A stretch of DNA of 4,518 nt from a virus. Lineage: Duplodnaviria > Heunggongvirae > Uroviricota > Caudoviricetes. Below the pieces are notes generated by a model. That model was not told the origin of the DNA. It saw only the letters and a program-made list of their open reading frames with translations, and ran no database searches. Shown piece after piece: positions 2,415 through 3,698 of the stretch. Every line of letters begins with the position of its first letter. Within the stretch, counting starts at the first letter, position 1. Location: the IMG/VR virus record IMGVR_UViG_2706794689_000007; one strand, given 5' to 3'. The translations under genes were made by a program, and so were the position numbers.

Positions 2415-2556
2415 GAATCCCCCTGTGCGGAGGGGCAATCAGCGAGTAGGTATATGGGATAATCGCGGATTCAGGTGCTGGTACTGAATTCACCGGGAGG
2501 CACCCGGCATCATGCAATGGCACATAGCGCCACTCTCCAGCCCTCTCCGGAGGGGC
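2415..2556 (+). repeat. Direct repeat copy 1 (~142 bp); candidate structured RNA element ending in terminator-like hairpin
   Basis: Matches 3556-3698 with one substitution (2510 T vs 3651 C) and one 1-nt indel. 5' hairpin CCCCT-GTGCGG-AGGGG (2420-2435); GAATCC (2415-2420) complementary to GGATTC (2467-2472); CCGGG-AGGCA-CCCGG (2494-2508); 3' hairpin GCCTC-CTCCGGA-GGGGC (one G-U pair) followed by TTTT (2557-2560). Confidence 0.9.
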
Positions 2557-2616
2557 TTTTCTGTGCCGGATACATCACAGTTTCTGGAACCTTAGGTACT
2601 ACAGTATCAGTCAGGG

Positions 2617-2625
2617 TGCTATATT
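2617..2625 (+). promoter_or_regulatory. Candidate extended -10 promoter (TGcTATATT) inside the cassette
   Basis: TG at 2617-2618, TATATT at 2620-2625; no clear -35. Would start transcription near 2632, just before ATG 2636 and the masked block. Confidence 0.3.
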
Positions 2626-2688
2626 TTCAGATGTGATGAAAGCCTGTCAGCAGGCAGGGCGTATCGGAAATGACCCAGTAGAGAAAAC

Positions 2689-2938
2689 NNNNNNNNNNNN
2701 NNNNNNNNNNNNNNNNNNNNNNNNNNNNNNNNNNNNNNNNNNNNNNNNNNNNNNNNNNNNNNNNNNNNNNNNNNNNNNNNNNNNNNNNNNNNNNNNNNNN
2801 NNNNNNNNNNNNNNNNNNNNNNNNNNNNNNNNNNNNNNNNNNNNNNNNNNNNNNNNNNNNNNNNNNNNNNNNNNNNNNNNNNNNNNNNNNNNNNNNNNNN
2901 NNNNNNNNNNNNNNNNNNNNNNNNNNNNNNNNNNNNNN
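2689..2938. other. Masked/undetermined bases (N-run, 250 nt)
   Basis: Run of n characters; hides the region immediately upstream of the cassette ORF. Confidence 1.
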
Positions 2939-2948
2939 GATTGAGTGT

Positions 2949-3290
2949 TTGTTATACGGTCTAATGGTTTTTTCAGCATTAAATATTTATCATTCATATG
3001 GTGTGGGTAGAGTGAATATTGATGAGGCGTCGGGGTGTTTCATCCTTAGGCAGCGTATTGATATAGTCAATGCAGCACGAGCAAAGGCCTTCAGCCGTTT
3101 GACAGTTTTGTTCTGTACTCCTGATCGTCTTTCGGGAAGAGACGTTATTATTCTGAATAGTGATGCTATACAGAGGGTTTGCGATGAGTTCATGGTTGCT
3201 AATTCAGAATTATTTGCTCTTGTTCAGGAGTACAACAGAATAGCCAGGACCTGTGGTATGGATGAACTTCGGATTACTCATCTGGGGTAG
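2949..3290 (+). CDS. Hypothetical cargo protein (at least 113 aa; true start may lie in the masked block upstream)
   Basis: ORF to TAG 3288-3290; first visible start is TTG 2949 and the frame is open back into the N-run. Hand count: AGA x3 and AGG x3 of 11 Arg codons, AUA x3 of 10 Ile codons, the codons read by the adjacent tRNAs. Hydrophobic visible N-terminus (LYGLMVFSALNIY). No recognisable family. Confidence 0.5.
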   Translation: MLYGLMVFSALNIYHSYGVGRVNIDEASGCFILRQRIDIVNAARAKAFSRLTVLFCTPDRLSGRDVIILNSDAIQRVCDEFMVANSELFALVQEYNRIARTCGMDELRITHLG

Positions 3291-3300
3291 ATACATATCT

Positions 3301-3555
3301 NNNNNNNNNNNNNNNNNNNNNNNNNNNNNNNNNNNNNNNNNNNNNNNNNNNNNNNNNNNNNNNNNNNNNNNNNNNNNNNNNNNNNNNNNNNNNNNNNNNN
3401 NNNNNNNNNNNNNNNNNNNNNNNNNNNNNNNNNNNNNNNNNNNNNNNNNNNNNNNNNNNNNNNNNNNNNNNNNNNNNNNNNNNNNNNNNNNNNNNNNNNN
3501 NNNNNNNNNNNNNNNNNNNNNNNNNNNNNNNNNNNNNNNNNNNNNNNNNNNNNNN
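3301..3555. other. Masked/undetermined bases (N-run, 255 nt)
   Basis: Run of n characters; hides the 5' boundary of repeat copy 2. Confidence 1.
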
Positions 3556-3698
3556 GAATCCCCCTGTGCGGAGGGGCAATCAGCGAGTAGGTATATGGGA
3601 TAATCGCGGATTCAGGTGCTGGTACTGAATTCACCGGGAGGCACCCGGCACCATGCAATGGCACATAGCGCCACTCTCCAGCCCCTCTCCGGAGGGGC
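3556..3698 (+). repeat. Direct repeat copy 2 (~143 bp visible; 5' boundary masked); ends in perfect terminator-like hairpin
   Basis: Near-identical to 2415-2556. 3' hairpin GCCCCTC-TCCG-GAGGGGC (7-bp perfect stem, 3681-3698) followed by TGTTTATATTGATTTTG. Homology to copy 1 stops exactly at the end of this stem. Confidence 0.9.

Follow-up and report, generated by a model that had tools for sequence, protein, structure and literature searches.

The stretch studied here, 4,518 nucleotides (nt) of a Caudoviricetes virus genome (IMG/VR record IMGVR_UViG_2706794689_000007) that we call the window and whose numbering is used for all coordinates, is part of a lambdoid late region. It opens with the 3' part of the gene for the late antiterminator Q and continues with a methyltransferase gene, tRNA(CAT), tRNA-Arg(TCT), a terminator and the first of two copies of a direct repeat, between which lies a small open reading frame (ORF) (Table 1). 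Three runs of N mask positions 1274-1489 (216 N), 2689-2938 and 3301-3555 (255 N). An original prediction, made from the sequence alone, had taken the repeats for the ends of a cargo cassette placed where Stx phages carry stxAB. Both repeats are in fact copies of a catalogued prophage gene, that of the small RNA (sRNA) STnc100.

Table 1. Features of the window, with position, strand and supporting evidence
Feature	Position	Strand	Evidence
Late antiterminator Q gene, 3' part	51..419	+	Pfam PF03589 Antiterm, E 6.5e-32
PR', pause element and tR'-like terminator	425..526	+	Alignment to lambda 44504-44799; terminator scan
tRNA(CAT)	2050-2125	+	ARAGORN; Rfam tRNA match; annotated tRNA-Ile (ileZ) in RefSeq records of relatives
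tRNA-Arg(TCT) (argO)	2226-2302	+	ARAGORN; Rfam tRNA match; RefSeq annotation of relatives
Intrinsic terminator 3' of argO	2317-2344	+	Terminator scan
STnc100 copy 1, promoter region	2351..2408	+	Invariant columns in alignment of six element types
STnc100 sRNA copy 1	2409..2563	+	Rfam RF02076; minimum free energy folds of nine types; consensus fold; terminator scan
Copy 1, closed multi-helix core	2409-2516	+	Folds
Copy 1, single-stranded 3' region, candidate seed	2517-2538	+	Folds
Copy 1, intrinsic terminator	2539-2563	+	Terminator scan
'Tail' module, runs into mask	2560..2688	+	100% identical to L001, L005, L016, L030 and others
Masked stretch with junction of two parental lineages	2689..2938	.	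N run
Cargo gene 1, phrog_2873 helical-hairpin protein	2949..3290	+	PHROGs E 3.3e-70, full length
Masked stretch	3301..3555	+	Proxy L133 5338-5595, between 100% identical flanks
STnc100 sRNA copy 2, visible part	3556..3705	+	Rfam RF02076; terminator scan
IraM-like anti-adaptor gene	3735..4070	-	NCBIfam NF007393, 162 bits vs cutoff 121; phrog_4407; RefSeq annotation
DUF1737 gene, cut at ~4460 by IS3-family end (4460-4518)	4316..4518	+	Pfam PF08410

A gap-free search returned the repeat as 2415-2543 versus 3556-3684 with 99% identity, and a MAFFT alignment stretched it to 2415-2559 versus 3556-3701, at a spacing of 1141 nt. The copies differ by one substitution (T2511 versus C3652) and one 1-nt indel (CCC versus CCCC, within the terminator stem), and a 145-nt repeat at 99% identity cannot be due to chance. 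Copy 2 begins at 3556 only because the mask at 3301-3555 ends there. In two related loci whose flanks are 100% identical to the window (L133 and L134; L numbers denote related loci), the homology runs ~75 nt farther upstream, through a conserved promoter region, so that the full length of the repeat is probably ~221 nt (window 2339-2559), with ~96-97% identity. Two near-identical direct repeats, an ORF between them (2949-3290) and a stx-equivalent position behind the Q, methyltransferase, tRNA and terminator block had all been predicted, and all three were confirmed, the last by the gene order of the window and by comparison with 933W.

Copy 1 matched the STnc100 family (Rfam RF02076, gathering score 47 bits) with 123.6 bits (E 8.8e-28) and copy 2 with 74.9 bits (E 2.7e-15), the lower score of copy 2 being due solely to its masked 5' end. 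The visible part of copy 2 is the commonest A-type variant, and a terminator scan placed its terminator, with a 9-bp stem, at 3679-3700, followed by a T-run. The location is also that of the family, which in 933W and in ~130 related loci is found in the lambdoid late region, on the late-gene strand and 5' of esterase or lysis genes.

The resident structured element that the prediction had seen in the repeat is thus STnc100 with its common fold. Indeed, minimum free energy folds of nine sequence types gave one common closed architecture for the first 108 nt. Helix P0 (GCAUGGUG/CACCAUGC) closes a junction that contains the invariant hairpins P1 (CCCCC/GGGGG) and P4 (CCGGG/CCCGG), a variable hairpin between P1 and P3, and hairpin P3, whose 8-9 bp covary (for example GGAUUCAG/CUGAAUUC, GGGUUCGGU/GCCGAACUC and GGGACGCUG/CAGCGUCUC). 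RNAalifold on 24 cores recovered P0, P1 and P4 alone, which are invariant and hence uninformative for or against structure; because the variable middle misaligns, the covariation of P3 was taken from the individual folds. The T2511/C3652 substitution falls in P0, where it makes the difference between a G-C and a G.U pair. Between the core and the terminator lie ~25 unstructured nt, and the 3' region of the A-type variant reads AAUGGCACAUAGCGCCACUCUCCAG.

Across loci (L012-L168) the STnc100 elements are mosaic: promoter, P0 and P1 are near-invariant, several alternative middle hairpins occur, and at least eight unrelated 3' continuations start directly after CACCAUGC, some of them without the usual terminator. 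To judge from these alignments, it looks as though seed and terminator modules had been exchanged while the scaffold stayed the same. In many RefSeq records of E. coli, the annotation pipeline PGAP places a partial pseudogene ('hypothetical protein, incomplete') on the strand opposite STnc100 (window 2395-2523 on the minus strand; L001 4604-4729). Together with the phrog_2873 ORF described below, which is not called, it looks like a systematic annotation error.

The region upstream of the sRNA is nearly invariant across six element types (TCACAATTCAG, TTGAC and TTTGTTAAAA), as is the 5' segment of the RNA, and the promoter region of copy 1 contains TCACAATTCAG and TTGAC. The probable -35 element of copy 1 is TTGTCT (2372-2377) and the probable extended -10 element is TGtTAAAAG (2393-2401). 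Together they would make up a promoter TTGTCT-18-TAAAAG, extended by a TG 5' of the -10 element, from which transcription would begin near 2409. PasD2, an sRNA of enteropathogenic E. coli (EPEC) E2348/69, supports this assignment, since its published 5' end (NC_011601 position 741157) falls exactly on the G at the start of P0, that of GCATGGTG; in addition, the -35 element of PasD2, TTGACT, lines up with TTGTCT. The invariant TTGACA was also considered as part of a sigma-54 or a canonical sigma-70 promoter, and this was rejected: by eye the spacing to any -10 is wrong, and the scan made no call there.

Members of the family are expressed in lysogens of enterohaemorrhagic E. coli (EHEC) and EPEC (PMC5331693; PMC8550237). 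In EDL933, 11 STnc100 copies are transcribed, one of them confirmed by Northern blot (PMC5331693), and the copy 3' of stx2 was detected in outer-membrane vesicles (PMC12370729). PasD1 and PasD2 of EPEC depend on Hfq for stability and have many RIL-seq partners (PMC8550237), and a shared origin of PasD and STnc100 has been proposed in a 2026 preprint (bioRxiv 10.64898/2026.05.13.724894).

The ORF between the copies belongs to phrog_2873. Three starts are available, TTG 2949 (113 aa, the longest), ATG 2964 (108 aa) and GTG 3012 (92 aa, MNIDE...), and the last is probably the true one, because conservation among homologues begins at VNIDE. Compared with a 57%-identical homologue, the ratio of nonsynonymous to synonymous substitution rates (dN/dS) is 0.27 over 91 conserved codons, and differences at third codon positions number 44, as against 25 and 23 at the others, a substitution pattern that marks the ORF as a real gene under purifying selection. 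The AlphaFold2 (AF2) model of the product consists of two long helices in a hairpin (predicted local distance difference test score, pLDDT, 71.5) behind 20 disordered N-terminal residues; it had no significant fold match in the PDB (best E 0.07), and the protein had no match in Pfam, NCBIfam or PADLOC. The family is tiny: a profile search across 1.84 billion representatives found only 20 relatives, and in the first homologue search all hits with source names came from Escherichia or Shigella. The visible segment of the ORF is nevertheless present in 1186 of 5426 complete E. coli genomes, where RefSeq leaves it unannotated.

The masked stretch downstream can be read by proxy. In L133 it encodes a 43-aa DUF3927 membrane peptide (in L133 and L003: Pfam PF13064, E 1.7e-27; phrog_1470, 'TciB-like'), followed by the promoter and the first 7 nt of STnc100 copy 2, so that the downstream terminator of the cargo would be that of STnc100. 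The region upstream of the cargo, masked in the window, is AT-rich in relatives and shows only a weak promoter match, TTGTCA-17-AAGTAT. No stx similarity was found in the visible ORF, and the stx operon, at 1.24 kb, would not fit into the masks, barring a gross error in their lengths. The prediction of an uncharacterised moron without recognisable stx was therefore correct, but the cargo is not new, being phrog_2873 plus, by proxy, DUF3927.

In every cargo-bearing locus seen, a DUF3927 gene lies directly 5' of an STnc100/PasD-type sRNA (L054, L062, L066, L116, L168), and its own upstream partner varies between the phrog_2873 protein, a TerB-like protein and, in E2348/69, a 247-aa hypothetical protein. 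The order ORF92-TerB-like-DUF3927 also occurs in a different phage type, without STnc100 (L144).

Between copy 1 and the cargo lies a 'tail' module. It is known from one prophage lineage, in which it comes after STnc100-A and, as a rule, before another STnc100 of divergent sequence (A-tail-B in many loci). In relatives (L005 4517-4760) it comprises a 34-codon ORF (MMKACQQAGRIGNDPVEKTLTQIPVLSYRETGIT) and then an intrinsic terminator of its own; it had no Rfam match, and it may encode a small protein or a further sRNA.

To place this arrangement among its relatives, we surveyed ~130 related loci from complete genomes and IMG/VR, a sample biased by its selection with a core-matching pattern, of which 84 could be anchored on a recognisable argO. 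From the argO terminator to STnc100, the gap is empty in 42 loci (104-107 bp) and holds the window's cargo type in 34 (723-726 bp). Elsewhere it contains a TerB-like gene with DUF3927 (798-858 bp, two loci), two small ORFs followed by a TerB-like gene and DUF3927 (~1454 bp, two loci) or stx2AB (~1435 bp, four loci). The terminator after argO is the usual left border of the cargo; in 933W the equivalent terminator is annotated directly 5' of stx2A, and stx2AB occupies exactly the space between it and the STnc100 copy. The argO-STnc100 interval is a genuine variable slot, equivalent to that of stx, with STnc100 as its constant right border, and a gene block that is present or absent at a fixed site among similar relatives is what characterises a lambdoid moron.

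These data bear on the idea that the cargo is a true mobile cassette, of which the repeats are the functional ends and which moved as a unit between resident prophage copies. Such a cassette would account for a variable slot with a constant right border, for many mosaic junctions directly after the core and, in the biased sample, for a higher diversity of the flanks (15 clusters upstream, 12 downstream) than of the core (8). The cargo-free product expected of recombination between the repeats also exists, as the order argO-STncA-iraM in L012, L017, L035 and others, and in L030 two A-type copies, at a distance of 2.1 kb, enclose different DNA. However, in the 34 loci that carry the same cargo there is a right-hand copy only and the left border is the tRNA terminator; the cargo is therefore not a repeat-bounded mobile unit of the integron-cassette, MITE or composite-transposon type. 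Neither inverted repeats nor a target duplication were found at the repeats, and no integrase or transposase gene was seen between or beside the copies in the repeat search and among the window ORFs, nor was any recombinase; the sole insertion sequence (IS) end of the window (4460-4518) is unrelated to them. In L030, the intervening DNA is an IS plus unrelated sequence rather than an alternative moron, and the other two-copy layouts are sRNA tandems, either A-tail-B, spaced by 468 nt, or A preceded by a divergent copy. In the window, moreover, the left copy carries its own lineage-specific tail, so that the duplicated unit is not repeat-cargo-repeat, and this order occurs in no complete E. coli genome. 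Taken together, we consider a mobile cassette unlikely.

The proposed exchange of cargo at the repeats thus holds insofar as the slot is variable and its border is a resident structured element, and fails insofar as the repeats are not cassette ends. They are copies of a known sRNA gene that is probably transcribed independently, which is close to the ordinary duplicated gene that the original prediction had named as the outcome speaking against it. It had further asked whether cassette-free relatives have a single repeat, as the argO-STncA-iraM order indeed does, and whether different cargo lies between copies elsewhere, for which L030 provides different DNA and no moron.

The repeats could also be cis-acting parts of a cargo operon, that is, an untranslated region, a riboswitch-like leader or a type I antitoxin for DUF3927. 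The constant place of DUF3927 directly 5' of the element, which extends to PasD2 in E2348/69, would fit this, as would the small size and hydrophobicity that DUF3927 shares with type I toxins. On the other hand, STnc100 occurs without cargo in the 42 empty loci and also downstream of stx2B, DUF3927 occurs without STnc100 in L144, and the 5' end of the homologue maps to the element itself. The best pairing of the sRNA 3' region with the cargo mRNA has an energy of -24.9 kcal/mol, compared with -24.5 +/- 2.6 kcal/mol for shuffled sequences, 24 of 60 shuffles being as good. On this basis a type I toxin-antitoxin or other cis-target link between the sRNA and the DUF3927/ORF mRNA was rejected, and we regard a cis-acting role within the operon as highly improbable.

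How the doubled arrangement arose is best seen from the identities of its parts. Window 1-2130 and 2226-2688 are identical to L164, in which the T-variant copy and its tail precede a stretch of 57 nt and then an IS. The right part of the window (2939-3300 and 3556-4518, across the DUF1737/IS junction) has 100% identity with L133, L134 and L152-L159, a set that includes HE616528.1 (Shigella sonnei 53G). By their diagnostic variants, the two repeat copies belong to two different parental lineages, with the changeover inside the masked 2689-2938; this points to the doubled state being a lineage-specific recombinant joint and not the normal way of carrying this cargo. In the 100-nt tRNA spacer (2126-2225), positions 2131-2225 are of the type found in cargo-bearing loci, with both flanks of the L164 type, and resemble a small conversion-like patch.

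The lengths of the N runs do not appear to be faithful. In L164, whose flanks are 100% identical, the 216 N of 1274-1489 correspond to 257 nt, which would bring both halves of the methyltransferase gene into one frame, and L133 and L134 have 258 nt in place of the 255 N of 3301-3555; the length of 2689-2938 is accordingly unreliable as well. With this reservation, the junction would fit the rest of the tail plus the cargo upstream region (~226-240 nt) and equally well 57 nt, a second argO and 112 nt (~246 nt). Bridging patterns over this mask had no match in genome_contigs or viral_contigs, and the 56-mer specific to copy 1 had none in metagenome_contigs. Matching of this 56-mer in genome_contigs and viral_contigs, exact-protein look-ups for four window ORFs and megablast of complete E. 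coli genomes turned up close relatives of either half, none of them with the window's order.

The window's order, tail and then ORF, was found by megablast in none of 5,426 complete E. coli genomes. Tail and ORF lie close together in three of them, H101 (L001), H102 and H103 (L170); in H101 and H103, which were inspected, the order is opposite to that of the window, and the H102 match has the same 895-bp span and features as H101. The exact order was likewise absent from the viral, species-representative and metagenome collections. This absence is what one would expect if short-read assembly had joined two prophages into an order that never existed in the cell, and two further observations go in the same direction. 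The halves of the window are identical to two different prophage types, and STnc100 and the late-region modules next to it recur within a genome: for 1.5 kb around the element, the number of matching places per genome has a median of 2 and a maximum of 13. However, a join across a collapsed repeat gives one copy with an internal switch and not two full copies 1.1 kb apart, and here the lineage switch lies outside the repeat, in 2689-2938. The patch at the tRNA spacer looks like real recombination or conversion, and comparable tandem rearrangements are present in the related contigs L030, L162 and L166. An assembly chimera is therefore, in our estimation, quite unlikely.

The IMG/VR contigs L162 and L166 contain two or three partial late regions in tandem, in which, for example, a block ending in cargo-STnc100-iraM-DUF1737' is joined to one starting with 'methyltransferase-tRNAs-STnc100-tail. 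Their odd junctions correspond to window positions 4371/895, 3725/873 and 2459/1, and are either real segmental rearrangements or assembly chimeras.

The transcriptional setting of the slot was derived from an alignment to lambda (44504-44799), in which the common parts are GGTAAATT...AACGATGGG and the T-run of the terminator. Directly 3' of Q lies PR', TTGATT-16-TAAATT with an upstream TG, followed by a sigma-70 pause element (AACGATGGG) identical to that of lambda and, in the terminator scan, by a tR'-like terminator at 500-526. By this layout, everything 3' of PR' would lie within the Q-antiterminated late transcript. We had also considered STnc100 itself as a late promoter or qut leader; with a lambda-like PR', pause element and tR' directly after Q, it is therefore not the late leader. 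This layout predicts a short leader RNA of ~65 nt, comparable to lambda 6S or StxS, and a weak Rfam match to isrK, below threshold (18.9 bits), overlaps the PR' region.

We thus favor, with good though not complete confidence, the view that the window contains two STnc100/PasD sRNA gene copies around a two-gene moron in the stx slot, doubled by recombination. By analogy with the homologues, each copy would have its own promoter region and give a transcript starting at the G of GCAUGGUG, a discrete sRNA of ~155 nt made in the lysogen. Each sRNA would probably act in trans, with Hfq dependence as in PasD, and the unstructured stretch of ~25 nt after the core would correspond to the PasD seed region. 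Their common 3' region should make the two copies redundant, so that the second would do no more than double the dose. The argO and STnc100 terminators would keep the units transcriptionally separate in the lysogen, and upon induction the whole stretch would be read through from PR' at ~425-470 under Q antitermination. The doubled layout would have come from recombination between two related late regions, one parent contributing argO-STnc100(T variant)-tail and the other argO-cargo-STnc100(C variant)-iraM. The direct repeats would then permit RecA-dependent loss of the 1141-bp unit, restoring argO-STnc100-iraM.

Several points weigh against this view. The exact order was seen nowhere else, which leaves some room for misassembly. 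The masks hide the junction in 2689-2938, the DUF3927 gene and the 5' end of copy 2 with its promoter, so that neither the recombination route nor the integrity of copy 2 can be read directly. The generic sigma-70 consensus scan of the window did not call the STnc100 promoter, and the invariant TTGAC lies too far upstream to serve as a -35 element. Moreover, the literature that we found gives no established function or target for STnc100 itself.

A further possibility, to which we give limited credence, is that the STnc100 core is more than an sRNA scaffold and also serves as a recombination linker of this part of lambdoid late regions. Homologous exchange within the promoter and core would reassort the upstream moron (stx, TerB-like plus DUF3927, ORF92 plus DUF3927, or nothing), and an exchange immediately 3' of the core would do the same for the downstream module of seed and terminator. 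The direct-repeat state of the window would then be a captured intermediate, able to lose its cargo or to transfer it to any prophage with the element. Many STnc100 variants do diverge right after CACCAUGC, which is compatible with a linker and with seed-module swaps and, in a pattern-selected sample, is a lead only. The invariant core and the upstream motifs (TCACAATTCAG, TTGAC) may in addition have a cis role in late transcription. If the linker existed, it would offer a concrete route by which stx and other morons pass between resident prophages, at which the present data only hint.

Regarding the remaining features, an antitermination protein of 273-284 aa is annotated at the position of Q in relatives, and the tRNA block of the window is without argN, the middle tRNA in 933W, L005 and L164. 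The IraM-like gene, on the opposite strand, adjoins STnc100 copy 2 and is a common alternative right-hand neighbour of the sRNA; in K-12, IraM belongs to a family of RssB inhibitors. The DUF1737/IS junction is identical in L133, L134 and L152-L159. The IS end borders transposase ORFs in L030 and is also found after the tail module in L030 and L164. These matches suggest that the window comes from a Shigella-like genome rich in IS elements.

Overall, every component of the locus is known and widespread, and only the order is rare. For annotation, this means that an apparent repeat-bounded cassette is two catalogued sRNA gene copies around a common uncharacterised moron. The segment from the tRNA block to STnc100 is a cargo slot shared with stx, and it should be useful in scans of prophages for new morons.

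Among known systems, the closest archetype is the STnc100 of 933W, which scores 207.7 bits, lies 75 nt after stx2B and is followed by AsxR and an esterase gene. The window copies share with it the closing helix, P1, P3, P4, the conserved promoter region and the terminator, as well as a place between the moron slot and the esterase/lysis genes. Unlike it, the A-type element of the window has a shorter middle hairpin and a different 3' region (123.6 versus 207.7 bits), and whereas the usual STnc100 layouts are a single copy or an A-tail-B tandem, the window has near-identical copies 1141 nt apart around a moron. Similarly, PasD1 and PasD2 of EPEC E2348/69, whose homologues in EHEC are named EcOnc13, have the same architecture as the window sRNA and the same context (Q ... 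DUF3927 - sRNA - esterase or lysis genes). The 5' end of PasD lies at GCAUGGUG, its seed in the 3' unstructured region before the terminator, and its stability is Hfq-dependent. The window sRNA is, however, divergent from PasD outside the first ~30 nt and a GGGAGGC motif, and with a different seed region its targets are presumably different.

As for the cargo, the stx2AB moron of 933W occupies the identical slot, after ileZ/argO and the terminator, before STnc100 and within the Q-dependent late transcript. In contrast to stx2AB, the window's cargo encodes a helical-hairpin protein of 92-108 aa and a 43-aa membrane peptide without similarity to Stx, and an additional sRNA copy lies to its left. 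In agreement with lambdoid morons in general, the insert is variable between conserved late modules, bounded by terminators and present or absent in close relatives, and, as at other lambdoid module boundaries, the mosaic joints cluster at conserved segments. What sets the window apart from the typical lambdoid moron is that the conserved right boundary of its cargo is itself an sRNA gene, presumably a functional one.

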